This document shows positions 1 to 58,531 of a stretch of DNA of 64,000 bases, one piece after another. Both the position numbers and the translations under genes were made by a program. Position 1 is the stretch's first letter. Each line of letters begins with the position of its first letter. Where the stretch lies: IMG/VR virus record IMGVR_UViG_3300047539_000147; one strand, written 5' to 3'. This stretch comes from an uncultured virus (IMG/VR IMGVR_UViG_3300047539_000147) (lineage: Duplodnaviria > Heunggongvirae > Uroviricota > Caudoviricetes). The notes under the pieces were generated by a model. That model saw nothing but the letters and a program-made list of their open reading frames with translations, was not told where the DNA came from and did no database searches.

Positions 1-70
1 AACTGGTTGTAGCCGCCTCACGTTGCAAACACAAGTACTTGCACGCACGAAAACGAGATTTTACCGGAAA

Positions 71-90
71 CTGGGGGAAGTCTGGGGGGA
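71..90. repeat. CTGGGGGA / CTGGGGGG direct repeat, 11-bp period; possible integrase arm-type sites
   Basis: ctgggggaagtctgggggga in non-coding DNA at the element end downstream of the integrase. Confidence 0.3.
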
Positions 91-134
91 CCCTCGCAAG
101 CTTCAGTAGCGCCGACATGTTGGTCTTCATGCAC

Positions 135-1652
135 TCAAGAGACGAAGGCTTCCAGGAGTTCGCTTCGATCCGTCTTTACGAGATCAATCAAGTCGTTAAG
201 TCGAGACCGACGCTTCAGAAACGCAATGAGTTCTACGATGCGCTCGCTCTTGGTCTCACCGCGCACCTCGTCCCAATCGACACCGAGATCCGACACCAGA
301 ATTCGAAGCTCCGCTATGTTGTAGGCACCTGCCAACGCGAGCCGCAATGCCCGGTAGTCGATTCCCGGCAAAGGCGCGACTGCCTCGCGGTTAACTCGTA
401 GGCCCCTTTCGTCGAGACCGGCCTGTATGAATGCCCAGACGAAGGCAGCCGATGCATCCGCGGCGTAGAGTTGCCAGTCATCATTCTTTGCGGCGTCGGC
501 GCGATCGCAGATCGCCTTGATCATCACGAATGGTACGTGCTCTGGGCTTTGATATAGTGCAGCCGCAATTCCCGCCGCTTCCATCTCGATGGCTGCTGCT
601 CTGCTCCAAACGGAGGATAATGCGCCGGCAGTCGCTTGGTCTGCGATCACCTTGTTGCCTGACAGTATGACCCCGAAATGGACCTTGGGGACATCCGACT
701 TTTCCCCCTCCGGACGTGGTGTCTTGATATGTTCTTTCCAGGCTGAGTCTCTGACATTAAGAAGATTGCTGAGAAGCGCCGAATCGCTGCGATACACCGA
801 CCATCGCGGCGACACTCCGGAAGAGCTCACTTTGCCGACCTCATAATCAACAATCTGTTCTGCAATCACAATGTCGCCCAGGCGCACGTCGTCGGACAGT
901 CCTCCGGCAATGCCGACAAGAAACATTTTCCGCGGCGACCAATCATCGAGAAAATTACGGGCCAGCAATGCAGCGTTCAACTGTCCCATTCCCAGGGCAC
1001 AGGCAGCAACGACCGAGAGTCCATTCTTCGTCACGCAAGTGTGGTATTTGCGGTCGGACTCTTGGTTCCTCCCCAGGCTGACAGACCAGTTGTCTGTCTG
1101 TCTCAGGACAGCATCGAGTTCCTTGGGTAAGGCCGTCAAGATCGCTACATCGCATTTGGTTCGCATCGGTACTGTATCCTTGTCGAAAGAAGGATTCGGG
1201 TTGGTGGCCAACTCGTCCTCGGCCTCAATGAACTCACTAATTCGCGCAGGTAGTTCAACGGGAGGGACTTGCGCTTTGCCGAAGCACGTCATTCTGGGCC
1301 GCCCAGCAAACCACTTGAGGACCTCGTGGTCTAAGCAACTGGTTAGAGCGACTATTCTGCTTTTCGGCCACTTGTGGCTGATAGTCCGTGCCAAAGAAAT
1401 GCCAGTCCGAAATCCGCCCGCTGTATCGATAGCATCCAGGGCCTTCCCGGGCGGCATCATGACGTCTAAAACGATTACGTCGAATCTCCGCCGCCCAAGG
1501 ATCGCAAGCGCATCGTCTGTAGAAGAGGCAAGAGTCACCGTGAAGCCAGCATCCGTCAGAGAATTAACATAATATCTTGTCTGGTAAATCTCATCATCGA
1601 TCAGCAATACTGAACGAACTGTTGGTTTTGAGGAAGGCATGTACTTACTCAC
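135..1652 (-). CDS. Receiver (REC) + purine nucleoside phosphorylase/MTA-SAH nucleosidase-family + C-terminal effector-associated (EAD7-like) domain protein; DtcC-like
   Basis: REC motifs LLIDDE, VLDVMMP, ALTS, K; PNP motifs ILTAL, VGIAGG, LGDIVI, IEMEAAG, IKAICDRAD..KNDDWQ; helical tail ELRILVSDLGVDWDEVRGETKSERIVELI. Confidence 0.85.
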   Translation of the reverse strand: MSKYMPSSKPTVRSVLLIDDEIYQTRYYVNSLTDAGFTVTLASSTDDALAILGRRRFDVIVLDVMMPPGKALDAIDTAGGFRTGISLARTISHKWPKSRIVALTSCLDHEVLKWFAGRPRMTCFGKAQVPPVELPARISEFIEAEDELATNPNPSFDKDTVPMRTKCDVAILTALPKELDAVLRQTDNWSVSLGRNQESDRKYHTCVTKNGLSVVAACALGMGQLNAALLARNFLDDWSPRKMFLVGIAGGLSDDVRLGDIVIAEQIVDYEVGKVSSSGVSPRWSVYRSDSALLSNLLNVRDSAWKEHIKTPRPEGEKSDVPKVHFGVILSGNKVIADQATAGALSSVWSRAAAIEMEAAGIAAALYQSPEHVPFVMIKAICDRADAAKNDDWQLYAADASAAFVWAFIQAGLDERGLRVNREAVAPLPGIDYRALRLALAGAYNIAELRILVSDLGVDWDEVRGETKSERIVELIAFLKRRSRLNDLIDLVKTDRSELLEAFVS

Positions 1653-2598
1653 CGTGCGGTCGACTCACCAAGATGACAGCCCTGTTCATGCCGGTTTCGC
1701 TTCTCTCCAGTTTCAATCGAGCGCGGCAGTCCTCAAGGAGGCGCGCCGCAGCAAAATAGTCAAAGTAGCGGTGGTCGGAGTGAGGTGGGAATTCGCCTGC
1801 GATAATTGCGTCGGTGATGTCCTTATCGAGTGGAGGTCCGCTGTCTTCAAAGCTCAACTGGATGATGTCTTCGGTATCCGACTGAAGGACACTAGAGGAG
1901 AGAGTGAGTACTCCTCTTCTCGCTTTGCCTTTCGTCCTTGCTTCAGCTGATCTCAGTCCATTCTCGAACAGCGCACTCAACGCGCGGCCGAACTTCTTGT
2001 AGTCACACCAAATCTCCGGAACTGGTGAGAGGCTATCGACGATCCTTACATTCGATGGCCCACCACCCTTGGCTGCGATAAGCTTCCGGAGTAGATCGGA
2101 CGCATCGACGGTACTCACCATCGTCCGGAAATCACGCTCCGTGTCTTCTGCCGCGGCGTAAATGAAATCTCGCAGCCGCTCGAATCTCGCCAAGTCGACG
2201 CCCGTGTCGCTGTGTACAACGTCCGACAATTCGTCGACGATCCTTATGAGCATGTGGTAGAAGGAGTGAGCTTGTGCCGCAGTAGCCCGCTGAAGCAAGA
2301 TCCGGTAAACATCCGGAGTCGCCTCCTCTTCGGCGGGAGCGGAATTGTCATCATCTAATTTTCGAGGAGATCTCGGCCCGAGATGCAACGCGGGATGAAC
2401 GGCGAGCTTCTCTAACAGGCGGGCCATCGAGTCAACAATCTCGCTGACGTCCCGAACATGCAGAACCACCTTCTCAGGCACTTTCAGCCGCTGCAGATCA
2501 CGATCAACCCTCGCAAGCGTGCTCTGACACGCATCCACCTGATGCCGGAGTTCGTGTCGGACAAGGGCAACGAGTTCGGCGAATTCTATCGGGACCAT
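1645..2598 (-). CDS. Degenerate sensor-less histidine kinase / HATPase-like protein
   Basis: H-box-like VRHELRH, N-box LFENGLR, G1 FEDSGPP; G2 box replaced by YFDYF; overlaps start of REC-PNP gene. Confidence 0.7.
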   Translation of the reverse strand: MVPIEFAELVALVRHELRHQVDACQSTLARVDRDLQRLKVPEKVVLHVRDVSEIVDSMARLLEKLAVHPALHLGPRSPRKLDDDNSAPAEEEATPDVYRILLQRATAAQAHSFYHMLIRIVDELSDVVHSDTGVDLARFERLRDFIYAAAEDTERDFRTMVSTVDASDLLRKLIAAKGGGPSNVRIVDSLSPVPEIWCDYKKFGRALSALFENGLRSAEARTKGKARRGVLTLSSSVLQSDTEDIIQLSFEDSGPPLDKDITDAIIAGEFPPHSDHRYFDYFAAARLLEDCRARLKLERSETGMNRAVILVSRPHGE

Positions 2599-2760
2599 CG
2601 GCTTTCGGCCTACCTTCCAATGTCGTAGTATGACCCAAGATTATACCCAAATGATATTAGGGACAGGAGAGGACAGAGGAGACCTGGTCTGAATGATGAG
2701 ACCGATCCACGGGTTGTCTCAGAGGTCAGGATCGTGGCCGAAGAGGAGAAGGAGCGGTGA

Positions 2761-3954
2761 CTACTGGACCACGACCAATTCCGGCGTCGGCGGGGGCTGC
2801 TGTTCTGCTGCCTCTTTCTTCCGTTTCTCGTCGGCCGCGTTCTGGCGCGCTGCGATCTCGTCGAGGGCCCGCCGCTTCGCTTCCATCCGGACGTGGGAGT
2901 AGCGCGATAGCATGGCGCGCGAGACGTGCCCGGCTATGCTCATGATGACTTCGTCCCCCGCGCCCGACTCGGAAAGCTCCGTGACCAGCGTGTGGCGGTT
3001 GTCGTGCCACCGCCCGACCACTTTAGCCTTGTCACGTACCTTCGTCCACGCCGTCCTCAACGTCGTGACGGGCTTGGTAGGATCATTCGGTTGCCCCTTT
3101 CCGGCGGGGAAGACGTACCACTCCGGCTTGCACTCACCGAACCGCCGGATGTACCACGCGGCGTGCGTCTCAAGGGCGATCATGACCGTATCGTTCAGCG
3201 GGATCACGCGGCCCGTACCGGCGTCGGTTTTTGATTTGCCTACGGTGAGCTGCTTTTTATGGACGAGGTCGATCTGCCGCCACTGGAGTTCGCGCAACTC
3301 CTTGTCGCGCAGGCCGCAATTCAGGTCCACGACGAGGGCGGGGTACATGTTTTTGCTCCGCAGCTTCGCAGCTTCCGCGAGCATGCGCGCCTTCTCGTCG
3401 GCGTTGTATGCGCGTCCGGGCGACGGCGGGAGAGCGAGTTTCATCGCCTTTTCTCGGCGCAATTTCGCGCGGATCAGATCTCCCTGGTCGCCGCACAGCC
3501 GCAACAGCAGCAGCACTTCGTCGTTGATTGTTTTGGGACCGGCCTTCGCCGCGAGACGATCTGTCTGGTAGCGTTTCACGACCGTCGGCGTGATCTCCAC
3601 GACGAGCCTCTTGCCAAGGTGGTCCGTTACGTGTCCCAGAGCGTACTCCGCGAACGTCCCGGATTCGTGCTTCAATTTGTAGTCGGCGAGAAATTCATCT
3701 GCTGCCTGCTGAATCGTTTTCCGGCGCTGCTTGCGGGCTTCCTCCTCGATGACCTGGCCATAGCTCTTCTCCAAGCGCTCCCGCTGACGGCTTTCTTCCC
3801 TTACCGCCTCGTCCCTATCCGCCGTGCCGGTGGACCCACGGTGCCGCCGCCCGTCCAGGGTGAACTCGTAATGGTAGAACGCTCCGTTTTTGAAAACGCA
3901 CATGTGGCGAAATTGCCTCGACCCCATGAGGGTCTTGGGTTGCGAAACAGTCAA
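2761..3954 (-). CDS. int: Tyrosine recombinase / phage-type integrase
   Basis: GLRDKEL (R), KSKT (K), HDNRHT (HxxR), AGH, RYSH (Y); N-terminal arm-binding-like segment. Confidence 0.93.
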   Translation of the reverse strand: MTVSQPKTLMGSRQFRHMCVFKNGAFYHYEFTLDGRRHRGSTGTADRDEAVREESRQRERLEKSYGQVIEEEARKQRRKTIQQAADEFLADYKLKHESGTFAEYALGHVTDHLGKRLVVEITPTVVKRYQTDRLAAKAGPKTINDEVLLLLRLCGDQGDLIRAKLRREKAMKLALPPSPGRAYNADEKARMLAEAAKLRSKNMYPALVVDLNCGLRDKELRELQWRQIDLVHKKQLTVGKSKTDAGTGRVIPLNDTVMIALETHAAWYIRRFGECKPEWYVFPAGKGQPNDPTKPVTTLRTAWTKVRDKAKVVGRWHDNRHTLVTELSESGAGDEVIMSIAGHVSRAMLSRYSHVRMEAKRRALDEIAARQNAADEKRKKEAAEQQPPPTPELVVVQ

Positions 3955-8030: not shown

Positions 8031-10250
8031 TCTGGCGGCAGGTAAGCTCTGAGGGAATCTGACGTGATTTTCTTGTTCTGGCCCTTTCCTTCAACGACCA
8101 ATACCTGGTCCTTAACGAGATTCTGCCGCTGGCGCTCCGTGAGGCCAAGGTACTGTTCTGCTGTCCTAAAGTTGACCGCGCGCTTGCCCGCCAGCAGGGA
8201 GGCGTCGCCTTTCCGCTCCTTGCCCGGTCGCGGCTTGGTGCGATCCTGTTTTGGCACATCGGAATCGACGCGCGAATCAGACGGTTCTTGGACCGACGCG
8301 ACAGGGTCGTGGCGGTCCTCAGTCGCTTTCGGAGTTTCAGATTCGGTCGGCGCGCCTCCAGCCGGCAATGTCCGAGAAGTACTTGAGCCGTTCCTTCCAG
8401 AACTCAGGGACGAACTCATCCAGGGCCTCCTGGGCGACCCCGGAGAGGCATCCATGCCATTCGCGCAATTCGGCTTCAGTCATTCCCTTGGGTGCGCCGT
8501 CCTCCGTCCTTCCCTCGCGTTTGTATTTTTCCAATTTCCCCGACGTGTTCATCTCCGAGAAGACACACAGCCAGACCCATGCCGTCTTCATTGTTTCCGC
8601 GGCGAACCACTCTGCGAAATCGTAGGCCCGCCGGATTGCCTCGTATGGCTCCGCGCAATCCGGAGTCAGAATACACCGGGCTAAAGTCAGCGTCGCGCTG
8701 GTAACATACTTTCGCGCAATCTCCAAGCTCGGACCGAGGTCTTTCAAATCCTGAGACAACGTCACCTCGGCAAGCGCCAGCCCAGCTTCGAACTTGACCC
8801 TGGTTGGCGAATCCATCGCGCTCGCGCCGCCCGACGATGACACCCGAGCAGCCATTGACGCTGGGGGCCTGACCGCTCCCGAGTCTGGATGCTCCGGCTG
8901 TTGCGCCAAATCGCCCTGCGCTTCGCCGCGCGTATTATCGGAGTCTGGTGGCGCGGTCGGAGAGTAAATGAATCGCCAGTGTGCAACTCGGTCTTCTATG
9001 TATGGCTTGATAGCCATCGCGAGACCGTGCCGTTCGCTCAGCCCGATGTACTGCCACCATTCCAGGTTCGTCAGATTGATACCCGGCGGCTCCCCCGCAG
9101 CGGGCGGCGGCAACGGTTCAAAGAAACGGAACCGGTGTTCAATTGCATTGCTCAGCAAATCGTAGAAGACACAGGTCGGGTCCGGGTCATTTCCCGCCAC
9201 TACGGCAACCTCTCGGCCCTCGGGTTTTCCGTCCGGCCCATCTTGCCAGAGCATCCGTATGACCTTCTCACCTGGGCAGCGGTCCCACTCGCGACCGAAG
9301 AGATCCCTGAGCACCATCGGAAGCAGTAGTTGATCGAGTGCTTCCTGGTAGGCCGCCAACGTTTGGGCCACATGGCTATAGGCTGAGGCGTAAACATCAA
9401 AGACCGCGACCGCATAGCGCCGGAAGGGTTCGACGAGAGCCGCCAGCGCAGGCCACTCTTTTCCGGAGAAGATCCCTTCCAGTTCGCTTCTAACTGCCGC
9501 CCGGCCGTCGAACACGCATGCTGAGATGCGCTTCTCGTCTTCGGGCGTCCAAATGCTCTCTGGATCAGGGTCCTCAGGATTGATCCACCGAACCGAGCCG
9601 TCAATGGACGTGACGCGGAACCGACCTTTCAAAGACGATGCGTCTGCCTGCCCGGCTGCCTGTGGCGCACCATTGCCGGTTTCTGCCGTTCCGTAGAGCC
9701 CGACTCGTGCGCCATACCGCTCAACGTAGTCATCGCACCAGGCCTGCAGGCCAGTATTCAGGAACGCCACCAGTGGCTCGATCTCCAGGCCTAGTCCGAG
9801 ATCCGAGTCCGCGTCCCTCGCGACATCTTTCAGGTCAGCGAGAACGGACTGGAGAACTGCAGCCATCCGCGACTCGAATTCCGAACGCGTCAACCCCAGG
9901 GACCACCACTCCCCACCGGCCAACGCTGCGAGTTCACGTGCGTAGCGCCCCAATAGATCGCGGACCTTCGTACGGAGGGCGGCCGTAATCTCGTCCCAGC
10001 CCAACTTTCGCTTATCCGTCGGCCCGTCCCACACAATCGGGCCGAGAAACAGCGAACGCGGCCCCATTGACTCGTAGTAGTCAGCGTCTTCGCCAGAAGG
10101 ACCCTCCCTCTCCAACTTGCCCGACCACTTGTGGAGTCGCTGCACGTTGTGCCAGCAGCGGTCGCGCAAGTCGCCCTGGCCTGTTTCGAGTCTTCGCCGC
10201 GCGTCTTCCGGAAGTTGGGTCGGCATCGCTCCCTCGGCGATTCTCTGCAT
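8018..10250 (-). CDS. Large hypothetical protein with C-terminal HTH-like domain; one frameshift near 8360 joins ORFs 8337-10250 and 8018-8455
   Basis: 637-aa ORF plus overlapping ORF ending VNFRTAEQYLGLTERQRQNLVK (MerR/xis-like HTH). Confidence 0.55.
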
Positions 10251-18450: not shown

Positions 18451-18616
18451 AAGACGAACGGCACGCGCCGGTTGGGCCGTTGCTTGAAACAACGGCCAAA
18501 CGATTGAAGTGTGATCTGATGTGGGAAAATTGGCTGTTCGGTAAAGTCTTTGAGGTGTAGGCGGTGAGTGTGAACGCTCACGCGAAGCGATCTTGGGGCA
18601 CCGATTTGGAGCGACC

Positions 18617-20012
18617 ATGGCAAAAATCGAAAACCACAAATACAGCATCGAGGAAGCCTTTCGAGAGTGCTTCTATATCGTTCCGGATTATCAACGCGAG
18701 TACGTCTGGACGGACAAGGAGGTGCAGCAATTGCTCGATGACATCAACGAGCAAATAGACGCCGGGAGCAGCCGAGAGTACTTCGTCGGAACAGTGCTGG
18801 TTTCCCCTGCTGCTGAGAAGAACCACTTCGAAGTCATCGACGGTCAACAGCGATTGACGACGTTCTTCCTGTTGCTGTGCGCGCTCAAGGAACTGTTCCG
18901 GGGAGAGCCCCAGGTTCAAACTTTGAGCGGCCTGATCGCCACTGGCTACACGGATCGGGAGGGCAATACTCGAACGAGCCTCAAGCTGGAGCCGCGTTAC
19001 GAAACCGCTGGCGAGGTGGTAAGCAAGCTGGTGGAGTTGAACACTGACCCGCAAGGAGTGCGCGCGGGTATTCAGGCTGCTGGCATCACGAGCTTCGGTT
19101 CGCTTGAAAATCTGATAAACGCCTATGCCGCGGTTCACCGCTACCTGAACGACAACTACGACGACCCCGGCCAAGCTCCGCAAATACTGGGGCTACTTGG
19201 CGAACAACGTGGTGTTCATACAGATTTCGACGGACGTCAGCAGTGCGCTTAAAATCTTCGAGACTATCAATGAGCGCGGTGTCGGACTGAATCCGATGGA
19301 CCTGTTGAAAAATTTGCTTTTTACGCATGTAAAGCTCGGTCAGTTCACGCAGCTCAAAGACGAATGGAAGAAGATCACCAAACCGCTGGAAAAGGCAAAG
19401 GAGAAGCCACTTCGCTTCCCTCCGCTACTTCCTAATGGCCAATTACGTGATCCGCAATGATCGTGGGGACGCGGTGGTGCGAGAGGACGAAATCTATGAT
19501 TGGTTCGTCGATAAACAGAACGCCGCGCTTTGCGACTATGCCACTAAACCATTCGAATTCGTTCGCAAGATCATCCGCGATGTTGAACAATACCTGGCAT
19601 ACACCGGGGGGTTGCGGAAACGACGGTAAGCCGAATCTCGTGATGGACAGCCTAAAGCGCATGTGCGGTGCAGCTTTCAGCTTGCATCATGTGCTGCTGC
19701 TGGCTGCGAGCAACTTCCCAAAGCCGCTCTTCGACCATTTCGTTGGCCAGCTAGAGAGCTTTCTCTTTTTCTACATCTTCACGAAGACGCCGACTAAGGA
19801 TTTAGAACGCAATTTTTCCGTCTGGGCAGATGAACTCCGCGCCATCGGTCAAAACTGCCGATCCGGTTGCGCAGCGCGCCCAGCTTAACAATTTCGTCGC
19901 CGACCGCTTCCAGAAGAATATGACGGCAAAGGAGGCGGAACTGACCGATTCGCTCAAGCGCTACTCTCTGAACACGATGCAACAATACCGGACCAGGTAT
20001 CTGCTTGCAAAG
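18617..20012 (+). pseudogene. DUF262 (GmrSD/SspE-like) protein, four frameshifts and 3' truncated before any HNH/DUF1524 domain
   Basis: VPDYQREYVW, IDGQQRLTT, IFETINERG motifs; homology ends abruptly at RYLLAK. Confidence 0.85.
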
Positions 20013-25085: not shown

Positions 25086-26285
25086 CTACCGTTGGAGTGT
25101 TACGACAAACTCCTGGCGCATGGTGATAACGCGCCTTACATCCGAAGACCTGCCACTAGCGTTGATCACTATGGGGGTCTTCTTGCTTGCGAAAGCCCTT
25201 GACCGGAGCGAAACCAATTCGAACCCGAATTTCCGCATGGTATCTGCGACGAACCGATCCAAGTACAAGCGCCGGTTCTCGACATTCCGCCGCGCAACCA
25301 CAAAAATCGCATGTGCCTTCGGAGATGCGACAGCAGCTATCTCGGAGCAAGAACGAAAGAGATCCGTCAAGTAGTTTCGTACCCGCAGACTGCCAGGGCC
25401 GTCGCGCCGACCGTGCCAGTACTCACTGACGTCAAACTCAGTAGGAGCCTCATCGCTACGACGACCGCCTAAACAGACTCGATCAATCTCGCCAGCAGTC
25501 TTGAACTGCACATCAAGTCGGGCCAGATGCCGAACGACGCCTAAACAAATTGAGGACATCCCACCATAGCCAACCGTGGTGCGCGAATCACCGTAAGGCG
25601 GCGAAGACACGACGACATCGAATCCGCGCCGCTCTCCATGTACCCGCAAGACGGATTCCAAATCCCGTGCATCACCTATACAGAACTTGTACCTGCTGAC
25701 AACCTGTGAAGAAGAATGCGCCTCCTCTATAAACCGCCTCAATCGTTTCTTGAACACCGCCCATGGAGACACCTCGAATACGTCCCGCTCCAATTGAGGT
25801 AGTCGGTGTAACTTCCACTGTTGATTCCGGCAAAATGAGACGTCCCGAGCGGTCGCACTCAAAATCGCGGCAAGCTGGACTACCACAGTCCGCGGAATCC
25901 GCTCGCCGTTGATCCATGTAATAATCTCTGACAACTCCCTCCGGACTGGCCCCGAGAACCAATCAGCGGTTCGCTCACTCTCGAAGTCATAAAGACCGCT
26001 CCTTTTGGGTCGGGCAGCTCTCCGGCTGAGGTCTTCCAGCATTCGCAGGTGTATAGTTGAAACCTTCGCCCTCGCGATCATCAGTGCCAGTGGGTTAACA
26101 TCAACACCTACTGCGCTCACCCCACGCGAATCACTCGCGACCAAGGTTCGAGCAGTACCACAAAATGGATCAAGTATCCTGCAACCGTCCTTAACTACCG
26201 CCCCAGTTATGGCGAGCGCCAGCTCATCTGCGATCATTGCCGGATATGGATGCAGACTGCTGAATCTGGTGCGATGCGCGCTCAT
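25086..26285 (-). CDS. Alpha-class amino (probably N4-cytosine) methyltransferase, MvaI-like
   Basis: LHPYPAM, ILDPFCGTART (atypical motif I), SSPPYGDSRTTVGYG. Confidence 0.8.
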   Translation of the reverse strand: MSAHRTRFSSLHPYPAMIADELALAITGAVVKDGCRILDPFCGTARTLVASDSRGVSAVGVDVNPLALMIARAKVSTIHLRMLEDLSRRAARPKRSGLYDFESERTADWFSGPVRRELSEIITWINGERIPRTVVVQLAAILSATARDVSFCRNQQWKLHRLPQLERDVFEVSPWAVFKKRLRRFIEEAHSSSQVVSRYKFCIGDARDLESVLRVHGERRGFDVVVSSPPYGDSRTTVGYGGMSSICLGVVRHLARLDVQFKTAGEIDRVCLGGRRSDEAPTEFDVSEYWHGRRDGPGSLRVRNYLTDLFRSCSEIAAVASPKAHAIFVVARRNVENRRLYLDRFVADTMRKFGFELVSLRSRAFASKKTPIVINASGRSSDVRRVITMRQEFVVTLQR

Positions 26286-26770
26286 GGATTGCAGGCCTCT
26301 ATGATGCGGTGTGCGACGTCATCCGCAGTCAGTCCGCTCGTGTCGATGTCTATAGGAGTCGGCGAGTTTCTAGATTCGACGTAGAGACGAGTTCTAAGCA
26401 TGTCATCGTCTGCGTCCCGCGCCCTAAACGCGTCGTCGCCTCCGCTACCCCGGCCAGCAAATCGCAGTTGCCGTTCCGTCTCGGAGCACAGTAAACGAAC
26501 GAGAATGACACCTGGCACCTCGGTCAATACGGAATCCAAAAATGTCCCCTCGATAATCAACCGATCTGTTGTGGCCGCAATTCTGCGAGTGGCATCATCA
26601 ATAATCCGATGGTCAGCGTTTGCGAGCTCGGAAGCACTGCGATTGTGCTGTCTCGCATATTCCTTAACGCTCTCGCCGCAATGCCGGACCGGCACCCCCA
26701 AATGCGCACCGAGGATTGTGGCGACCGCGGACTTCCCGACGCTTGAGCGTCCAAATATCGCAATGACCAT
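26282..26770 (-). CDS. Nucleoside monophosphate kinase, archaeal cytidylate kinase-like
   Basis: IAIFGRSSVGKS P-loop, CGESVKEYA, LIIEG, ERQLRFAGR lid; ATGA overlap with downstream MTase. Confidence 0.8.
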   Translation of the reverse strand: MVIAIFGRSSVGKSAVATILGAHLGVPVRHCGESVKEYARQHNRSASELANADHRIIDDATRRIAATTDRLIIEGTFLDSVLTEVPGVILVRLLCSETERQLRFAGRGSGGDDAFRARDADDDMLRTRLYVESRNSPTPIDIDTSGLTADDVAHRIIEACNP

Positions 26771-26775
26771 AGCCC

Positions 26776-27981
26776 CTAGTCCTTTCTGAAGACGCACAGG
26801 TATTCCTGAGAATCGGAACCCAGACGGTCAGAGACCCGGCGCCGAGTCGGGCGCCGCGTGACCGGGCCCCACACCGGCCGAAGAAACCTCGTGACTGCTT
26901 TGAGTACTGATTCGGGAGCTTCCTGAAACTTTCTCGAAGAGCCGATAACAATTGCGCAATAGCCACCAGTTCTCAGTACTCGACTGAATTCGCCTGCGGA
27001 CGTCTCAATTGCAGCCAAGTAATTCTCGTACTCGCGGAGGCGATCTCGCCGATATCGCGCACCTATTTCATTCACTTTGTCAGTGCCAAGGGGCCACTGA
27101 TGCCACAGATATGTCAAGCGATTCGCACGCGTGTAGTCTATCATCCCAATGTACGGCGGAGACGTGACGACAAGATCTACAGCGTTGTCATAGAATGGCA
27201 GGCTCCTGCTATCACTGCGGCTTACCATTGCACTACCGCCCGACACTGGCCGACTGTGCGCTGATCGCAACACGTCTATCGCGTGCGAGAGTCGCTGCAA
27301 AAATGCGAGGCGAGCATCGCGCCATGCCAATGATTTCGGACGCACATTGTCGGCCACCCATCCCCAATGGTGGCGCCTATGTTTCCGCCCCGGCCGCCCT
27401 GATATTGGTGAGGGCGAGATACTGCCAAACAGGGTGTCTGAGAACAACATCTGTAGCACTTCGGACGCCGCAGGTCCCTCGACACTTTCAATAATCCGCC
27501 AGATGCCACGAAGCTGAGAAAGCGTGTCTGGGTGATACCAGTGACTAAGCTCCGCGGCTTCGCCCTGGCCCAGCATGCCCCCGTGGTCAACACCGACGTC
27601 GAGGCGGGTGCCAATGACCTCTCCAACTGCGCGGAGGGCCGCCTCGATTTCTGGAGATGCAAGCATCGAGCATTTCGCCTTACTGATCAGTACGGCCATG
27701 GGGCTGAAGTCCGATAGCACCGCGCTCCGACCAAGCATAAAGGCTTCGGCTCCAGTCGTGCCGCTGCCGCAGAACGGGTCCAAGACGACCTGGCCCGCGC
27801 GAGATAACGTCTGGACCAAGAACGATGGAATCTGTGGTATGAAATTTCCAGCGAACCAGTGCAGCGAGTGGACGCTGTTTGGTATCGTGGTCGCCCCCGG
27901 AAAGTTCCAATCCACCGCGTCGAGTTTCGACTTGATTGCGGCTTCTTCTTTGGACGTAGTGTTCACGAGGGCTGACGCCAT
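26776..27981 (-). CDS. Alpha-class amino (probably N4-cytosine) methyltransferase
   Basis: HSLHWFAGNFIPQIP, VLDPFCGSGTT, VVTSPPY. Confidence 0.85.
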   Translation of the reverse strand: MASALVNTTSKEEAAIKSKLDAVDWNFPGATTIPNSVHSLHWFAGNFIPQIPSFLVQTLSRAGQVVLDPFCGSGTTGAEAFMLGRSAVLSDFSPMAVLISKAKCSMLASPEIEAALRAVGEVIGTRLDVGVDHGGMLGQGEAAELSHWYHPDTLSQLRGIWRIIESVEGPAASEVLQMLFSDTLFGSISPSPISGRPGRKHRRHHWGWVADNVRPKSLAWRDARLAFLQRLSHAIDVLRSAHSRPVSGGSAMVSRSDSRSLPFYDNAVDLVVTSPPYIGMIDYTRANRLTYLWHQWPLGTDKVNEIGARYRRDRLREYENYLAAIETSAGEFSRVLRTGGYCAIVIGSSRKFQEAPESVLKAVTRFLRPVWGPVTRRPTRRRVSDRLGSDSQEYLCVFRKD

Positions 27982-27984
27982 GGG

Positions 27985-29244
27985 TCAGAAAAGAGATGCT
28001 TCACATGTTCGACGCACCGCATAGCAGCGCGCGCCAAAGAAGTCTTGGACGATGCCGGCAATCGTGGCCGCCTCCGTCGCGGTAAAGGGGCTCTTTTTCG
28101 GAGAACCACCACCCAGAAGCCATTCAGACGAGTCTTCGCCAAGTTCAACATCGCCATCTGACTGGACAAAGATTCGGACACGGCGTTTTCGCTTGTCTTT
28201 GATGCGGTAAGAAAAGTACTCCCTCCCGATCCTATCGGACACTATCGCCGAGAACCTCTTGAGGTCTGACAACTGAGGCGAAAGGCCTTGAACCCATAAC
28301 AATGGACTAAGGTCCCACACGTCACCGAGCATCCAACGACGCGTCGTCTCTTCAATCATACGGTCGCCAGCAGTGGACAGCCTGGTTAGATACTCCAGGT
28401 CGGTCCACTTCCAATCGTCAAGCGTGAAGATGCCGATCCCGTAGGCCCTAACGGTCGAATAGAGAAGCATTAACTTCCCCGCGAAGTCTGCTTCCGATAG
28501 CATGAGACGAGCATACACTCTCTCGCGAAGGCCTAGCCATGCACGAATGAGCGGAATCGCGTCCGGAGAGAACATCAGGTCTCCTGCGGGCGTCACGCCA
28601 GTCATCAACTCTGCAACTTTGATCGGCGACACCATGGAGCAGTCGAGACCCATGTGGTAGGCAATGCGAGTGACATTGTCAAGATTGTCGATGTCCATGT
28701 CCCCTGCGATCAACTTTCCAAAGGCGCCACGACCGCTGATCAAGTCGAATAACTCACCGATACGGCGTTGTGCATCTACGCGGAACGCTCGCAGCATCCA
28801 CTCTTTCAGCTCTGATTGATGTCCGAGAAAGAGCTGGAGGTCGATCCCACCGACATCGGGCACTTCGCCTCCGGCGAGTAGCAATGCCCATTTTCGCTCG
28901 TGATTGAACCCCGTCTCAACATACTGCAGGGCCTCCTCTACGAGGTGCCCAAATGGCGATATTGCTGTATCGTGGATAAGCGCAGCCGCCTGCAAAAGCA
29001 ATTGTTCGTCACGATGAAGGGACTGGCAGAAGCCAACGCGGCTGCAAAGATACGCTGTGCCAAGAGCATGCTCGAAGCGGGATGTTCCTGATATCCCCGG
29101 CATGTCTAAAGAGTCAATGTTCGACAGTCGGATGTGACGCAGTCGCTGAAGCAACGGGCGTCCTACTAGATCGGCGATTTCATCCGAAAGGGCGACATCA
29201 CCATAGAGGACATCTAAATAGGCGATATTAGGGGGCTTAGCCAC
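27985..29244 (-). CDS. HD-domain phosphohydrolase, SAMHD1/dNTP triphosphohydrolase-like
   Basis: LQRLRHIRL, SRFEHALG, ALIHDTAISPFGH, DIDNLD. Confidence 0.88.
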   Translation of the reverse strand: MAKPPNIAYLDVLYGDVALSDEIADLVGRPLLQRLRHIRLSNIDSLDMPGISGTSRFEHALGTAYLCSRVGFCQSLHRDEQLLLQAAALIHDTAISPFGHLVEEALQYVETGFNHERKWALLLAGGEVPDVGGIDLQLFLGHQSELKEWMLRAFRVDAQRRIGELFDLISGRGAFGKLIAGDMDIDNLDNVTRIAYHMGLDCSMVSPIKVAELMTGVTPAGDLMFSPDAIPLIRAWLGLRERVYARLMLSEADFAGKLMLLYSTVRAYGIGIFTLDDWKWTDLEYLTRLSTAGDRMIEETTRRWMLGDVWDLSPLLWVQGLSPQLSDLKRFSAIVSDRIGREYFSYRIKDKRKRRVRIFVQSDGDVELGEDSSEWLLGGGSPKKSPFTATEAATIAGIVQDFFGARCYAVRRTCEASLF

Positions 29245-30361
29245 CAGTTTTCTCCACTCTCACGGGATTGGTCGTGTCGATCCGGGCAGGCCCCACATAA
29301 ATATCCGAATATGTTTGGAGGAGCAGAGAATCAACGTCTGAAGCGGTAGGCTCGACAAATACGGTCACCATGCCACCCCATGCATGTTCCGATGGTAGGA
29401 CGTGCCTAAGGAATATCCTGTACTGCTCTGGAGATTCGAGGTCGATGAGAGCAGAGCAACCCTCATAGACTACTAGAGTCGGGTTGCGAACCTGACCGCC
29501 AGATTCATCCTTGAGTTTGTTGAATGCCCTTGCTGTCGCCGTATGGACACCGGCGTAGGAAGGGCGGGAGGTAACTGCAATGACACCTTTGCCAGTGATC
29601 TCAGCGGTCCTTTCGAGATGCACCGAGTCAGTAAAGCCAAAATGCGGCGTATATGCATCAATAACGGCCACCCGCCGGGCGTGTGCTTGATTCTCCAAGA
29701 CCTTCGCAGAAGCGAGGCTGTCTATAAGCTCAAAAGGATGGCGAATGCAGGTCGTGTATTGCACATAGCAATCTTTGTCAAGGAGGTCAGCGATGATGGC
29801 GACCAGGAATTCATCTGTTTGGGACAGACGGCGTTGGCAGATTGATATCGAGGGGGACGTAGCCCATCTGTGCTGTGGCACAGTCTTGAAGTCTCGGCGG
29901 ACTCCCGCGAGAATGATGTCATTCGGATTGGTATCGCTTAGGAGAATGCGCAGTGCATCTTCAGTCAGTTTCGGAGGTGTGTGCTCATAGGACGGCTTAC
30001 GGCGGAGTCGTCGCAAGAGATGCTTTGCGTATCTAACTACGGAGGTGTTCCTTATGAGATGGTCGTCGCGAAAATGGACATGACGATTGTGCAACCGCCA
30101 AACGTTGTAGACAACCGTCGTAAGTGCTATGCAAAGAAGAGTAGCAGCAACTCCTTCTGAGACTGTCTTTGCCCGCGGAAAGCTGGCCGGAATTAGTGAA
30201 GAGATAGATGCAATGAAAATGGAGACTGTTACAAGTGATGCGATTGGGTAGATGAACGTTGTGATGTATGGCGTCTTTCTCTCCCTCGCCAACAGGGCGT
30301 AGAAGGCAAGGAGGAATGCCAGGAGGGCGAACGCGGAAGTGACTAGAGTATTGGCAGGCAT
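29237..30361 (-). CDS. Membrane protein: about 3 N-terminal TM helices + KaiC/RAD55-like RecA-fold domain without Walker A
   Basis: Hydrophobic first ~90 aa; YVQYTT..RHP, VAVIDAYT, LVVYEGCSAL, TVFVE pattern; no GxxxxGK[ST]. Confidence 0.6.
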   Translation of the reverse strand: MPANTLVTSAFALLAFLLAFYALLARERKTPYITTFIYPIASLVTVSIFIASISSLIPASFPRAKTVSEGVAATLLCIALTTVVYNVWRLHNRHVHFRDDHLIRNTSVVRYAKHLLRRLRRKPSYEHTPPKLTEDALRILLSDTNPNDIILAGVRRDFKTVPQHRWATSPSISICQRRLSQTDEFLVAIIADLLDKDCYVQYTTCIRHPFELIDSLASAKVLENQAHARRVAVIDAYTPHFGFTDSVHLERTAEITGKGVIAVTSRPSYAGVHTATARAFNKLKDESGGQVRNPTLVVYEGCSALIDLESPEQYRIFLRHVLPSEHAWGGMVTVFVEPTASDVDSLLLQTYSDIYVGPARIDTTNPVRVEKTGG

Positions 30362-51853: not shown

Positions 51854-54384
51854 ATGGCGCGCGCACCGAAGAAGACCACATCCGAAAAAAAGCCGATCGA
51901 GCAGTACGAGCACAAGGGCAAGAAGCGGCTGAACAATCCGCCTGTCGGCCTGGTGACGCCGGAGACGGACAACGAGGAGCCGAAGAAGACGTATCGCTAC
52001 GACCCTCACCTGGACCCTCAATTGATCTGGGCCGGCAAGAATGAGCGCACGTCGTTTGAAGTGCCGTCGATTTCGCTGCACGTCCACGAGCGTATCGACC
52101 CGCGCACGATTGTCGAGGCAGTCAAGAGGAAAAACGGCGGCCCGCAAATGTCGCTGTTTCAGAATCCCGCCGAAAACCCTCCCCTCCGCGAGGCGGTCGA
52201 GTTTTATAAACACAAGCACAATTGGTCAAACAGGCTGATCGCGGGCGACAGCTTGCTGGTGATGAACTCCCTGCTGGAAAAGGAGGGAATGGCGGGGCAG
52301 GTGCAAATGGTGTACTTCGACCCGCCGTACGGAATTACATACGGGTCCAACTTTCAGCCGTTTGTCCGGAGTAAAGAGGTCAAAGACAAGGACGAGGATC
52401 TGACCGCAGAGCCGGAGATGGTCAAGGCCTTCCGTGATACCTGGGAACTCGGTCTGCACTCGTATCTGACGTACCTGCGGGACCGGCTCCGCTTAGCCCA
52501 CGAACTATTGTCGGATTCTGGTTCGGTCTTCGTACAGATAAGCACAGAGAATCTCGAATACGTATCCCTGATTCTCGACGAGATTTTTAAACCAACTAAC
52601 AAGGTGGAGTTGATTTCTTTCAGAAAAAAGACAATGCCACTTGGGGGTACTCTGCTGGAGGGCAACTGCGACTACCTGCTGTGGTACGCAAAAGACAAAT
52701 CACTAGTGAAGTATAGGAAGGTGTTTCAACCAAGCCTTGTCGAGGGAGACTCGCACTGGAACTACGTTGAACTCAAGGACGGTGTGCGGCGCCAACTCAC
52801 GCGAGAAGAGATTAATAATCACAGTCTGCTTCCGCCTGGAAGCGATGTGTACCAGTTGATTGGCCTTTACCCGACCGGCACTTTTGACACAGGAATCTAC
52901 GATTTCAAACTGGATGGAGTGACTTATAAGCTGCCGCCCGGCAAGTGTTGGAAGACCCCAATCGAAAGCATGCGGCGGCTGGCGGCGGCTCGGCGTCTAC
53001 AACCTTATGATGCCGGCAAAACGCTTCGCTATGTTTTGAAGCATTCAGATTACCCGGTGACCCCGCTCGGCAATGTCTGGCAGGACACATCGGCTCCTCC
53101 CGACAAGCGATATGTCGTTCAGACCTCTAACATCGTCATTCAGCGGTGCTTGCTGATGACTACGGACCCCGGCGACCTCGTAATTGACCCGACTTGCGGA
53201 GGTGGCACAACAGCTTTCGTTGCCGAGCAGTGGGGGAGGAGGTGGGTTACCTGCGATACGTCGCGCGTTTCGGTTGCAATCGCGAGGGAGCGGCTTATGG
53301 CGGCTGTCTTCGAATACTACGAATTGGCGCACGCAGACGAAGGAGTGAGTAGCGGCTTCAAATACAGGTCGGCGGCTCACACTACTCTGAAATCAATTGC
53401 CAACAATGAGCCACCAGGACAGGAAATCCTCTATGACGATCCCGTTCGAGACAAGAAGAGGGTTAGGGTAACTGGGCCATTCACCGTCGAAGCCGTCCCC
53501 GCACCCGTTGTTCGCTCCCTCGATGAAGCAGACGCGAGCATTGATCCCATGCCAGCCGATGCCTCGGTGGCCCGTACTGGCGCAACCGCGCGTGACCGGG
53601 ACTGGCGGGACGAGTTGCTGCGCACTGGCATCCGGGGCAGATCTGGTCAGACTATCGAGTTCACCCGCGTCGAGCCTTTGCCGGCGACCCGCTGGCTCCA
53701 TGCCGACGCTGAGACCAAAGAAGGACTTGCCGCAGCGCGTCGTGGTTTCATTCGGTCCCGAGCACGCGCCCATGGAGCAGCGCCAAGTCGAACTGGCCAT
53801 TGAAGAAGCCGGGAAGCTGGTGCCGAGGCCGAAGATGATCGTCTTCGCCGCGTTCCAATTCGACCCGGAAGCGGCGAAGGACATCGACGAACTGAATTGG
53901 CCGGGAGTGACGCTGCTCAAGGCGCAGATGAACGCGGACCTGCTCACGGAAGACCTGAAGAAGAAGCGCGCCAGCAACGAGAGCTTCTGGCTCATCGGCC
54001 AGCCGGACATCGAGGTCCAACCCATCGGCGATGGTGAGGATAAGGGCAAGTATCGGATCACGGTCAATGGCTTCGATTACTACAACACCAAGAACGGCAA
54101 GATCGATTCCGGCGGCACCGAGAAGATCGCCATGTGGATGCTCGATCCCGACTACGATGGCCGCAGCCTCTTCCCTCGCCAGGTGTTCTTTCCCAATGGC
54201 CGGCGAGGATGATGGCTGGGCGAAGCTGGCCAAGAACCTGCGGGCTGAGATCGATCCAGATCTGATCGAGGCGTACCGCGGGACAACATCGCTGCCGTTC
54301 GCTGCCGGCGCAAACAAGCGCGCCGCTGTGAAGATCATCGATGACCGGGGCATCGAGAGCCTCCGGATTGTAGACCTGGAGTAA
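51854..54384 (+). CDS. mod: Type III restriction-modification methyltransferase (Mod), frameshifts near 53725 and 54195
   Basis: NRLIAGDSL, YFDPPYG, DPTCGGGTT, C-terminal AVKIIDDRGIES. Confidence 0.9.
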
Positions 54385-54387
54385 TTG

Positions 54388-57300
54388 ATGCCGTCCGGCA
54401 CAATCGACCAACTCATCGTCAACTCGCCCTACAGGGAGCCAGAGCAGCACTGGAGCTACGAGCGCGAGTCACGCTCATTCACGCTGAAACCCGGACGCAG
54501 GCCGGCGGGCTACGTGACGGCGACACCTGGCGCGAAGACCTTCGACGATCCAGGCATCTTTCGCGAACTGCCCCTGGTGAATCAAATCCGGCCGCGCGTG
54601 AAGGCATGGCGGGAGGCAGACCACCCAGGTGTCTCCGGCGTCACCAAGAAGCTGCTTTCGCACTGGCACGATGTCGAGCAGCGGAACGGGCGGCGCTTCT
54701 TTTTCTGCCAGCTTGAAGCTATGGAGACCCTGGTCTGGCTGACTGAGGCGGCGGCGTCGGAGCGCGTCGGCATCAATATCCCCGGCGACGGCGGGACCTT
54801 CACCAGGATCTGCACCAAGATGGCCACCGGCTCTGGCAAGACCATCGTGATGTCGATGGTGGTAGCCTGGCACGTTCTCAACAAGGTTGCTTACCCGCAG
54901 GATAAACGCTTCTCAAAGAACGTCTTCATTGTCGCGCCGGGCTTGACCGTAAAGAGCCGTCTTGGAGTGCTCGTGCCAGGCTCTGCGGACAACTACTACG
55001 ACCTGTTCAACATTGTGCCCATGGGCCTGCACGACCAGATGCGGCAGGGCAAGGTAATGATCCGTAACTGGCACACGCTGATGCCGCTCGATCCGGATGC
55101 CGGGCCCAAAGTGATTAGAAAAGGTCCGGAGAGCGATGAAGCGTTCACCAGGCGCACCATGGAGGACTTGGCCAGCGCTCAGAATCTGCTCGTCATAAAT
55201 GATGAAGCTCACCACGCCTGGCGCGTCCCGCCAAAGCTGTCAGCCCAGGATTTCGGAAAGCAGGAATTGGAGGAGGCCACGCTGTGGATCGGAGGCCTGG
55301 ACCGCATCCATAAGACGCGCGGTATCCTTTCCTGCTATGACCTGACCGCCACGCCGTTCGCGCCCACGGGAAAGAAGAGCGACGAGGAGACCTTGTTCGG
55401 TTGGATTGCCAGCGATTTCGGTCTGAATGATGCGATTGAATCGGGTTTGGTAAAGACGCCACGTGTCGTGGTCCGTGATGATGGGACGCTGACGAAGGAT
55501 TACAAATCGCGCCTTTACCACATCTACATGGACGACGAGGTTCGCGATGACCTCAACCGCAAAGCGGAGCCACACGAACCGCTGCCTGACCTTGTCCAGA
55601 ACGCCTACTACCTGCTCGGCAAGGATTGGCTGGAAACCTCGAAGCGCTGGTCGGAGGCGGGGTTCAAGGTGCCGCCGGTGATGATCACCGTGGCGAACCG
55701 GACGGAAACTTCGTCACGTATCAAATACGCATTTGACCGCGGCAAGATTCGTATCGATGAATTGTGCGTGCCGGAGAAGACGCTGCAGATCGACTCAAGG
55801 GTCCTGGACAAAGCGGAGGCCCGCGAAGAGGCGCCCGAGATCGCAACAGACATTCGCAGAACCCGCCGAGGAGGAGGACAACGGCCAGCCCGCTGCAAAG
55901 GTATCGAAAAAGGACCAATTCGAACTGCTGCGGCGTATCGTGGGTAGCGTCGGCCAAGCGGGTCAGCCCGGCGAGCAGATCCAGAATGTGATCTCGGTCG
56001 GCATGCTTTCTGAGGGCTGGGACGCGAAAACCGTAACGCACATCATGGGGCTGCGCGCGTTTACGAGCCAACTATTGTGCGAGCAGGTGGTGGGGCGCGG
56101 ATTGCGGCGAACGTCCTACGACGTGAATCCCGAGACCGGTTTGTTCGAGCCGGAATACGTCAACATCTTTGGCGTACCGTTCACCTTCCTGCCGCATGAG
56201 GGTGGCGAGGGCGCGCCGCCACCGCCGCCGCCTCCGAAGACGGAGATCAAGCCCCTGTCGGAGCGGGTCGCGTTCGAGCTCACGTGGCCGAACATCGTGC
56301 GCATCGATCACGAGTTCCGGCCGAAGCTCACGCTCAACACGGCTCTGGTGAAACCGCTGCTCATCGATGCCGCCGAAACACGGACTATCGCCGAGCTGGC
56401 ACCTATCGTCGAGGGCAAACCAGAGATCCGAATGGTGAGCGAGATCAACCTGCAAGAGTTGGGGCAGAAGTTCCGGATGCAGCGCATCATTTTCGAGACG
56501 GCGCGCGACATCTTCGACCAGATGCGGCCCACCTGGAAGGGCAGCCGAGAAGCCCTGCTTGCGCAGTTGATTCGGCTGGTGGAGCGATTCCTCGCGAGTG
56601 GCAAGATTGACATCACGCCGCCCCTGTTTACCCAGGACCCATTGCGGCGGCGCATTGTGCTCACGCTCAACATGAATCGCATCGTGCAGCACATTTGGGA
56701 AGCGATCCGATTCGAGAACACCCAAGCACTGGCGTTGGTATTCGACACGGAGCATCCGATCCGGAGCACGGGCGACATGCGTTCGTGGTACACGGGCCGG
56801 CCATGCGAAATGACATCGCGGTCCCACATCAACTTCTGCGTGTACGACAGCACCTGGGAGGCATCGGAATCGTACGTATTCGACAAGAACCCGAACGTGT
56901 CGGCGTGGGTGAAGAACGACCATCTTGGCTTCGACGTGCTGTACGTGTTCAAGGGCGTCGTCAAGAAATATCGCCCGGACTTTTTGGTCCGGTTGAACGC
57001 GGGAACCATGCTCGTGCTCGAGGTGAAAGGCCAGGACTCACCCGAGAACCGCACCAAGCGGGAATTCCTGGCCGAGTGGGTACGTGCCGTCAACGAAAAT
57101 GGCGGGTTCGGGCGATGGGAGTCGGACGTTTCATTCCACGTCAAGGACATCGAGGGCATTCTTGCCCGCCACTCATCCGCATCCGTGGTGATCGGCCCAG
57201 GCAAATCGGCGTCGATTGAAGCTCTCCAACGGCTATCCGCCCACCTTTCCATTTCGAATCAGGACATTGCCCGCCTGCTTCACGCGTCCGCCGAAATGAT

Positions 57301-57535
57301 CGTGCATTGGGAGTCGGGCGAGACTGTGATGCCGCCTGAAATGGAGGTGGCAGTTACGGCTGCGGACACTGCGCTGCGGCGGATTCTTGCGATCTTCCGG
57401 CCCGAGCGACTTCGGGATGTCATCCGGCAGAGAGTGGAGCTATTCCATGGACGCTCCGCCCTTGATTTGATTTTGGAGGGCCGCATAGAGGAAGTAGCAG
57501 ACCTCTATGTCGCGGCATTCGCGTATCAGGGATGA
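54388..57535 (+). CDS. res: Type III restriction endonuclease/helicase (Res), frameshift near 55850, with in-frame C-terminal Xre/MbcA/ParS-type antitoxin domain (about 57188-57535)
   Basis: KMATGSGKT, NDEAHH, LSEGWD, QVVGRGLR, PDF..LEVKG; tail has HTH NQDIARLLHAS and FHGRSALDLILEGRIEEV. Confidence 0.85.
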
Positions 57536-58074
57536 AGGCGACTGTTTACCACAATCATCTGCCGATCTACCGGGTCGTGAGGCGCGGCTGGCCCGATCCC
57601 ATCGACACGGCGTTCTCGCAATCTCCCAAGGTGGACAACCGATGGAATACGGTTGATTTTCCGGCGCTCTACTGTTGCTGCTCGGAGGCCGTTGCGAGCG
57701 CCATTGTGAGAGACATCTTTCGCATCACCGGAGCCACCCTCGCTGATCTCCTCGAAACCGCTTATCCGCAACTGGTAGAGATCCAGTGGCAGGGGGAACC
57801 CGTCGACATGACCGCCGAATCCGCGATTGTGTTGGCTGGCTTTTCGCCTGACTACCCCGATGGCGCGAATCACAGCCAGACTCAAATCGTTGCCATCAGT
57901 TGGCACGCCGTCGGTGCCTCAGGCGTTTTGTGTCGAAGTGCCTCGATGGCTCGCCTGGGGTTCAACGGTTGGAGCGGTGACCATGCGGCGTGGAGCGAGC
58001 TTGCCATATACACGGAGAACTGCGCTACGAAGCCGAACGTGCTGAATCGCCGGGATGACCTGGGCTGGCTGTAG
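57532..58074 (+). CDS. RES-domain toxin-like protein
   Basis: IYRV, NRWN..ALY, SQTQIVA..GVLCRSA; ATGA overlap with antitoxin-like domain. Confidence 0.8.
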   Translation: MKATVYHNHLPIYRVVRRGWPDPIDTAFSQSPKVDNRWNTVDFPALYCCCSEAVASAIVRDIFRITGATLADLLETAYPQLVEIQWQGEPVDMTAESAIVLAGFSPDYPDGANHSQTQIVAISWHAVGASGVLCRSASMARLGFNGWSGDHAAWSELAIYTENCATKPNVLNRRDDLGWL

Positions 58075-58531
58075 TCGCAGCCCCTTGTCCTGTTTCCATT
58101 CTGCCTCGCGGAGCCGATACAGGGCGAGCTTTCTTCAAATCCATCCATGTTCGCCTTTGATTGTCCCAGAGCACGATCTTTGTGAGCGCTCGGACTGCTG
58201 TTTCGGCGGTAGCGGGCGTTCTGATCGGCAGCCCCTCCCCACTCAAGATCTCCTCTTGAATCTCTGGCGCGAGGAGCAGGAGATTCATAATCTGCGTGAG
58301 CCGGGCGCGCGACACGTACCCCAACCGAGCGATGTCCGCGTAGTCGTGCACTTCGCCGCGGTTGACCATGTCCTGGAACTTGACGGCGAGAGCCATCAAT
58401 CGAGCGATTCGCGGGATGCGTGGCGGGTCGGGCACCTTGGGCACAGCCGGGCTGCGGTGCCAGCCACCCTTGCGGCCCTTCGCCGGTACGATGGTGATTT
58501 CGACCTGAAGTGTCCCGTCGTCGATACTCAT
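58025..58531 (-). CDS. Hypothetical protein associated with serine recombinase
   Basis: ADIARLGYVSRARLTQIMNLLLLAPEIQEEIL HTH; ATGA coupled to recombinase. Confidence 0.75.
   Translation of the reverse strand: MSIDDGTLQVEITIVPAKGRKGGWHRSPAVPKVPDPPRIPRIARLMALAVKFQDMVNRGEVHDYADIARLGYVSRARLTQIMNLLLLAPEIQEEILSGEGLPIRTPATAETAVRALTKIVLWDNQRRTWMDLKKARPVSAPRGRMETGQGAATTASPGHPGDSARSAS

Follow-up and report, generated by a model that had tools for sequence, protein, structure and literature searches.

A two-gene cassette near the end of a virus element is most likely a prophage-borne defence cassette, in which an ATP-blind phosphotransferase is predicted to gate a putative ATP nucleosidase. The window, meaning the whole stretch of DNA analysed, comes from a virus record of 64,474 bases, of which it covers the first 64,000; the record encodes integrase, helicase, portal, terminase and tail genes. 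Some form of defence or toxin role takes up most of the total probability. We give a probability of about 0.42 to the reading preferred here, an abortive-infection cassette whose pseudokinase would pass host phosphate to the receiver of an ATP-destroying nucleosidase. An earlier note on this DNA had likewise recognized a defence-type REC-nucleosidase cassette in a mobile element, and this view is upheld.

The cassette and its genomic slot

The features of the cassette and of its surroundings are as follows (window positions, except for the last line).

1..98, minus strand: prophage attachment arm, defined by the match to the sister prophage L009; it abuts the 3' core of a tRNA-Asn(GTT) starting just outside the window
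135..1652, minus strand: effector gene REC-PNP-EAD7, 505 aa from GTG at 1652 or 501 aa from ATG at 1640
171..347, minus strand: EAD7 helical adaptor domain (Pfam, 50.2 bits)
426..1148, minus strand: PNP_UDP_1 nucleosidase domain, residues 169-409 (83.6 bits)
504-506, minus strand: catalytic D383 of the PNP domain, by alignment column
1233..1610, minus strand: receiver (REC) domain, residues about 15-140 (Response_reg, 40.3 bits)
1464-1466, minus strand: phospho-acceptor D63 of the receiver
1645..2598, minus strand: orphan histidine-kinase-like gene without sensor region, 317 aa
1663..2103, minus strand: degenerate catalytic (CA) domain, with N213 and D252-S-G kept
1753-1767, minus strand: YFDYF in place of the G2 box, residues 278-282
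2110..2316, minus strand: second helical hairpin with the H-box-like H111, residues 95-163, directly before the CA domain, low-confidence model
2398..2583, minus strand: first helical hairpin with the H-box H15 (HELRH), residues 6-67, low-confidence model
2640..2645, minus strand: possible -10 element TATAAT, 41 nt upstream of the kinase-like start, no -35 match
2761..3954, minus strand: tyrosine integrase bounding the slot (Pfam Phage_integrase, E 4.8e-19)
L009 9202-12597: alternative cargo at the L009 slot, four genes, also with a preceding TATAAT

Both minus-strand open reading frames (135-1652 and 1645-2598) were confirmed. They had been described as an overlapping pair near the element end; the pair and its setting between integrase and attachment arm stood, while the 8-nt overlap exists only with the GTG start. 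The probable start of the effector is ATG 1640; the genes are then 4 nt apart, and the product has 501 aa, as does the database record P0124. A consensus promoter scan upstream of the cassette returned no full site, folding of the spacer upstream of the kinase-like gene is not unusual (z 0.6), and three RNA runs contain 5-10% of the sampled words of the sequence.

The limits of the slot were revealed by a sister prophage (L008/L009) with 96% identity to the window over 9,082 bases. The match stops at window 2822, within the last codons of the integrase, and resumes at 5-94 (L009 12562-12651), after which L009 continues into the 3' part of the tRNA-Asn. In L009 the slot is filled by four other genes unrelated to the REC-PNP-EAD7 cassette, namely a P-loop-like ORF without Pfam match, a protein with a GreA/B C-terminal domain, a thymidylate kinase that matches PADLOC PDC-M51B (E 4e-32) and a methyltransferase fusion; possibly, this alternative cargo is an undescribed defence operon. 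The cargo swap together with the shared arm therefore places the cassette inside the element, between integrase and attachment site. The earlier note had missed the tRNA-Asn arm and the unrelated cargo of the sister prophage, as well as the second hairpin (H111) of the kinase-like protein. In two other runs, slot-skipping contigs join the integrase end to the attachment arm (98 to 2818 and 40 to 2834). Small, high-turnover loci between conserved phage genes are described as reservoirs of defence systems (PMC9122126), and from the two fillings read we infer that the slot may be such a hotspot.

The GC3 of the cassette is 0.60-0.62, compared with 0.79-0.87 in six core phage genes and 0.69 in one unassigned ORF. 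Parts of the cassette are present in 20 of the 22 runs listed, of which those named come from peat or permafrost and three may be its source. Cassette contigs listed from four runs are near-clonal (0-1 letter differences), and a separate contig spans the junction between the effector and the kinase-like gene. A 24-nt exact match to the tRNA-Asn 3' end also occurs at window 61097-61120 (minus strand), with a serine recombinase (58528-60090) and a DUF2924 gene close by; the prophage may have its other attachment site here, or the match may mark the site of a second element.

The effector is a PNP-EAD7 protein with a receiver

An intact REC fused to a PNP nucleosidase and a helical C-terminus had been read from the sequence, and all three domains of the effector (P0001) indeed score above the Pfam cut-offs (30.2 bits for Response_reg, 25.1 for PNP_UDP_1 and 32 for EAD7). 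The receiver keeps D19-D20-E21, D63, T104 and K126, D20 and D63 being invariant across four REC-PNP-EAD7 proteins. In the nucleosidase, E178, E356-M357-E358 and D383 are present, the last aligned with the catalytic Asp of MtnN, DtcC-like and Cap17-like proteins. Unlike MtnN, the effector has K379 and C382 in common with DtcC-like proteins, and K389 in common with both DtcC-like and Cap17-like proteins. The effector model, built from a 30-row alignment, reached a mean pLDDT of 78, and its PNP part adopts an MtnN-type fold (Foldseek E 2e-17). The search of the record for a stand-alone REC gene matched the effector only, which agrees with the claim that there is no separate REC buffer, and the effector is also the sole EAD7 match, with no second EAD7 protein in the phage record. 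The earlier note had put forward the EAD as a possible route of triggering.

EAD7 forms the C-terminus in 116 of the 119 homologues listed; 54 consist of PNP-EAD7 alone, and N-termini vary in the remaining ones, three being REC by Pfam (P0005, P0045 and P0051). EAD7, previously taken for an added domain, is therefore the standard C-terminus of the family and not an addition to this effector. Other fusions were observed in the family, since P0070, P0034 and P0051 carry QueC-like, PfkB, or REC plus TIR domains, and a small zinc-ribbon-like N-terminus occurs on many other PNP-EAD7 proteins.

Descent from Detocs, as the earlier note had it, was not supported at several levels. For comparison, six Detocs-like loci with three genes each were used together with a Cap17-like CBASS locus, and the PADLOC check covered two of the six Detocs-like loci and the CBASS effector. 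The PNP domain of the effector has 40-60% identity to 12 PNP-EAD7 rows, 25-31% to six DtcC-like rows, 26% to the Cap17-like row and 20-24% to four MtnN-like rows. On PADLOC PDC-M60C it scores 141.5 bits (E 8e-42), against 344-395 bits for the DtcC-like proteins of three-gene loci. Three trees were built, a quick one with 64 rows and two careful ones with 29 selected rows (LG+G4 and a mixture model), and in all of them DtcC forms its own clade (100/100) without the effector. In the LG+G4 tree the PNP-EAD7 rows constitute a 99/99 clade on the Cap17/DtcC side, whereas in the mixture-model tree MtnN attaches among them; because of this difference, the place of PNP-EAD7 in the immune clade is not settled. 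The AU test rejects a grouping of the four REC-PNP-EAD7 rows with DtcC (p 0.017), and it does not reject P0001 alone with DtcC (p 0.083), P0001 with MtnN (p 0.10) or a single origin of the four REC fusions (p 0.13). From these sequence comparisons, the simplest reading would be that REC was fused onto a pre-existing PNP-EAD7 module, and not EAD7 onto DtcC.

A second REC-PNP-EAD7 locus with DNA was found neither in the viral, metagenome and genome scans nor in three phylum samples (401, 351 and 351 genomes), and the REC region used alone as query matched only P0001 and one unrelated kinase. One further copy of the effector was recovered in L015 (1-830), which is 97% identical, carries an internal stop and is joined, near its end, directly to the tRNA-Asn 3' end; it is a decayed sister prophage end. 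The 19 synonymous, 6 missense and 1 nonsense differences from the effector point to past purifying selection, and also demonstrate that effector copies do decay.

In the neighbourhoods of relatives, ORFs of at least 90 aa were scanned at 19 PNP-EAD7 loci, several of them on short contigs, with the exclusion of four ORFs (two PNP genes themselves and two apparent duplicates). Defence or conflict neighbours occur at 6 of these 19 loci, a count that has no background control, as follows.

L016: GmrSD
L019: TIR-EAD7
L024: argonaute with AEP-TOTE
L028: ThiF with E2
L084: NACHT-phosphoesterase
L094: vWA-EAD protein

Integrase, transposase or intron was found at 5 of the 19 loci. On the negative side, no kinase or REC neighbour was detected at 26 PNP-EAD7 loci (duplicates included, many of them short), with a profile that would miss a kinase as diverged as the 317-aa partner. 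EADs are proposed to be homotypic adaptors that recruit effectors (PMC7159879). A clear adaptor-coupling pattern was observed for PNP-bDLD3 genes, which adjoin bDLD3-STAND or bDLD3-kinase genes (L002 5980-8691 and L046 6974-11442).

The kinase-like partner

A full phmmer search of 1.84 billion cluster representatives returned no relative of the partner at E<=0.001, and neither did a word search, a PDB sequence search or a viral scan find one. Six weak matches were obtained in 351 genomes, with 26-31% identity over residues 125-300, five of the six being ordinary sensor kinases with an intact G2; Pfam HATPase_c is matched at E 0.16 only. The ESM Atlas groups the protein with histidine kinases (feature score 0.97-0.98, structure TM 0.56-0.60), its top clusters being short HATPase_c clusters, some of them HPTransfase-bearing, and aligns its model with proteins that combine HisKA and HATPase_c. 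Residues 1-168 fit an Atlas cluster of kinase-like proteins (489 aa) at TM 0.69, below the family-naming bar, so a double hairpin may also occur in other proteins. The single-sequence model of the partner is poor (pLDDT 50), and with it Foldseek gave non-significant kinase matches (best E 0.004) and VIA-align generic helical bundles only.

H15 lies in the best H-box window of the partner (1/1000 shuffles as high) and H111 in the second best, weak when taken alone (41/1000). In a weak global profile alignment, H111 falls in the H-box column of a normal kinase core; an AHDFNN-type kinase profile gave it no better support (69/1000). Compared with a canonical histidine kinase, the partner has the H-box His and lacks the G1 and G2 glycine motifs, since DSGPP replaces DxGxG, with Pro for the second glycine, and YFDYF stands opposite the GTGLGL G2 box (P 0.005 in a weak global profile alignment). 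These results agree with the earlier description of a kinase without sensor region and with a broken G2, and the motifs indicate that the partner probably cannot bind ATP. Both hairpins contain HxxxH, at H15/H19 (2542-2556, minus strand) and H111/H115 (2254-2268, minus strand), where the usual Thr/Asn is replaced by His, and the paired motif is a possible metal site or trace of an old duplication. Duplication of the hairpins was not supported, their mutual similarity being at chance (895/1000 shuffles as high). Selection on the partner is unmeasurable, because the known copies are near-clonal and come from one lineage.

Proposed mechanism and alternative explanations

By its anatomy, and by the example of PhyK/LovK, the partner without ATP-lid glycines would be a histidine phosphotransferase that does not autophosphorylate. 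H15, and perhaps also H111, would take phosphate from a host donor whose state would shift on superinfection or stress. The phosphate would then be passed to D63 of the receiver and, following the precedent of Cap17 and DtcC, phosphorylated D63 would activate the nucleosidase, which by the same precedent would destroy ATP/dATP. EAD7 likely oligomerises the effector or docks it on host EAD7 proteins. This relay is favoured by the intact REC and PNP residues, the slot, the family context, the histidine-kinase fold, and the retention of H15, N213 and D252 with loss of G2. Against it stand the occurrence of the pair in one near-clonal lineage, the broken L015 copy, the lack of kinase or REC at the 26 PNP-EAD7 loci and the model-dependent membership of the Cap17/DtcC side of the tree. 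In its boldest form, the double-hairpin phosphotransferase would wiretap the host two-component network without a sensor of its own, and infection-induced phosphate flux would lead to ATP destruction, which we regard as doubtful.

The foremost alternative, itself rather doubtful, is that of a kinase-like gene left without a role by decay or truncation, with an effector that works alone, switched by REC cross-talk or by EAD7 contacts with the host. Such a view would suit an orphan with no second lineage, whose H-box begins 15 residues from the N-terminus and whose G1 and G2 are damaged, in a family where 54 of the 119 homologues listed are bare PNP-EAD7 and where the sister effector copy is broken. 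A recent fragment should, however, resemble its parent, and none was found, the best matches being those at 26-31% identity over part of the chain. Moreover, the His, Asn and Asp landmarks are kept, and an independent contig (X4, 2436-3012) joins the start of the gene to the integrase with zero differences. Upstream of the gene, an in-frame stop is reached after 15 codons and the integrase end after 162 nt, so a lost sensor would not fit into the present layout, which speaks against the earlier concern that the kinase might be cut from a longer gene. If there was a sensor loss, it would be old or date from capture, and a frame of 317 open codons without relatives would fit long divergence better than recent truncation.

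It is unlikely that the partner acts instead as an antitoxin or sink in the place of DtcB, binding or draining REC phosphate, so that its loss or titration during infection or prophage loss would free the toxin. The two-gene order with the regulator first speaks for this idea. Thr or Asn at position H+4 is linked to phosphatase activity, and in both hairpins of the partner this position is His, which argues against it. Further in its favour, no DtcB is present here, while Detocs turns toxic when the Asp of DtcB is mutated (10.1101/2023.01.24.525353), and a PhyK orthologue with a degenerate CA domain was proposed to be a phosphatase (PMC5964349). The L015 contig is uninformative on this point, because it does not contain the partner.

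More improbable is an active atypical kinase that uses its N-terminal hairpin, with the HxxxH motifs (15-19 and 111-115), as sensor. N213 and D252 are kept, both hairpins carry HxxxH and the DtcA-like kinases likewise depart, by eye, from the canonical boxes; nevertheless, the partner has other residues at every G2 glycine and at the second G1 glycine, whereas DtcA-like kinases keep a lid motif, and the G1/G2 residues are described as essential to ATP binding (PMC5964349). Most improbable is a metabolic cargo, namely an MTA/SAH nucleosidase of housekeeping type controlled by a two-component system: the best NCBIfam and PDB matches are MtnN and the AU result given above does not reject P0001 with MtnN, but the three-domain effector scores under the NCBIfam equivalog cut-offs for MtnN (107.6 vs 169 bits and 51.8 vs 73.8 bits), its identity to the four MtnN-like rows is low, a long supported branch separates the two, the PNP is fused to a conflict adaptor, and the clustering with MtnN that would have counted against the defence reading was not seen in either careful tree.

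Comparison with known systems

Among the closest known systems is Detocs. Rousset et al. report that Detocs requires the His of its kinase and the Asp residues of both receiver and PNP, that the PNP cleaves ATP and dATP, and that detection calls for dtcA, dtcB and dtcC together, and they present Detocs as the first two-component pathway adopted for anti-phage use (10.1101/2023.01.24.525353). The cassette shares with Detocs an N-terminal REC on a PNP, both with their phospho-acceptor and catalytic Asp (D63 and D383), an upstream His-bearing gene of kinase fold and a location on a mobile element. It differs in being a pair without DtcB, in its C-terminal EAD7 and in a PNP of another subfamily, which lies outside the DtcC lineage. 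The DtcA-like proteins are of about 1060-1165 aa, with a different H-box and a preserved glycine-rich lid (EG-G/R-x-G-F/Y/L-x-K), whereas the 317-aa partner is unrelated, has lost G2 and has neither. The claim of a Detocs-type kinase also failed on profiles, since a profile built from six DtcA-like C-termini gives the partner -2.8 bits, and no PDC-M60A model matches it, whereas such models do match the control loci. By eye, the dtcA-like genes at L096-L101 display an 'IRHG/IRHQ' H-box and no DxGxG, with the glycine-rich lid kept, and that of L096 is split over two ORFs. The cassette is not Detocs, because it fails three membership features, and resembles it at the effector end; we would class it as a PNP effector of the EAD7 type that has acquired a receiver and an orphan pseudokinase. 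Sequence relationships suggest that the Detocs-like architecture would be a convergence, assembled separately by fusion of REC to a PNP-EAD7 conflict module.

The EAD-coupled PNPase effectors, as described by Kaur et al. (2020, PMC7159879; 2021, PMC8195603), share the PNP with C-terminal EAD7, and fusion of EAD7 to an enzymatic effector is found here above the Pfam cut-off. Following the coupling principle, the relatives at L019 and L094 adjoin a second EAD-bearing gene, while here there is none with EAD7, and an N-terminal REC with all active-site residues and a kinase-like neighbour are present instead. For the vWA-associated effectors, Kaur et al. (2020, PMC7159879) report that no histidine kinases were found, and receivers without kinases are noted to act in other conflict systems (PMC8195603).

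For the partner, the closest likeness is with PhyK/LovK, in which a DHp-like His is combined with a CA domain not needed for, or not capable of, ATP binding; PhyK is described as a phosphotransferase that does not need its G1/G2 boxes (PMC5964349). PhyK/LovK serve stress and cell-cycle transcription together with ChpT, whereas the predicted output here is a toxic enzyme, and two His-bearing hairpins in one chain are a feature of the partner alone among them. We take ChpT, a histidine phosphotransferase of kinase fold, to be a comparable case, with a DHp-like His and an ATP-independent CA domain. Cap17 of type III CBASS is also a PNP-family effector, and the Cap17-like protein of L102 (505 aa) has D472 at the position of D383; Cap17 differs by its gating with cyclic nucleotides through TPALS and by its 26% identity, and there is no cyclase here. 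No description of a REC-PNP-EAD7/kinase-like pair was found in the literature searched, which did not extend to the supplements of the Detocs preprint, where PNP-EAD7 proteins may be listed.

If the proposed reading is true, the REC-nucleosidase design has been reached from a different PNP subfamily, without sensor or buffer protein, and phosphorelay-gated immunity arose more than once and can take its signal from host circuits, the sensor-less wiretap being its second, independent invention. The cassette also offers a compact two-gene test of the role of EAD7 and of ATP destruction by the widespread PNP-EAD7 family. Known from a single lineage and with a predicted function, it is of specialist interest for the convergence and for its odd partner.

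Other loci on the element

A GmrSD N-terminal fragment (window 18593-19252) and genes resembling type III restriction-modification (two ORFs with Res), together with a RES-domain gene (51854-58074), indicate that the element carries several defence-type loci. Another, sparsely annotated cassette at 25086-30361 contains two methyltransferases along with one kinase-like and one HD-like gene, and a 637-aa ORF at 8337-10250 (minus strand) has no Pfam, NCBIfam or PADLOC match.
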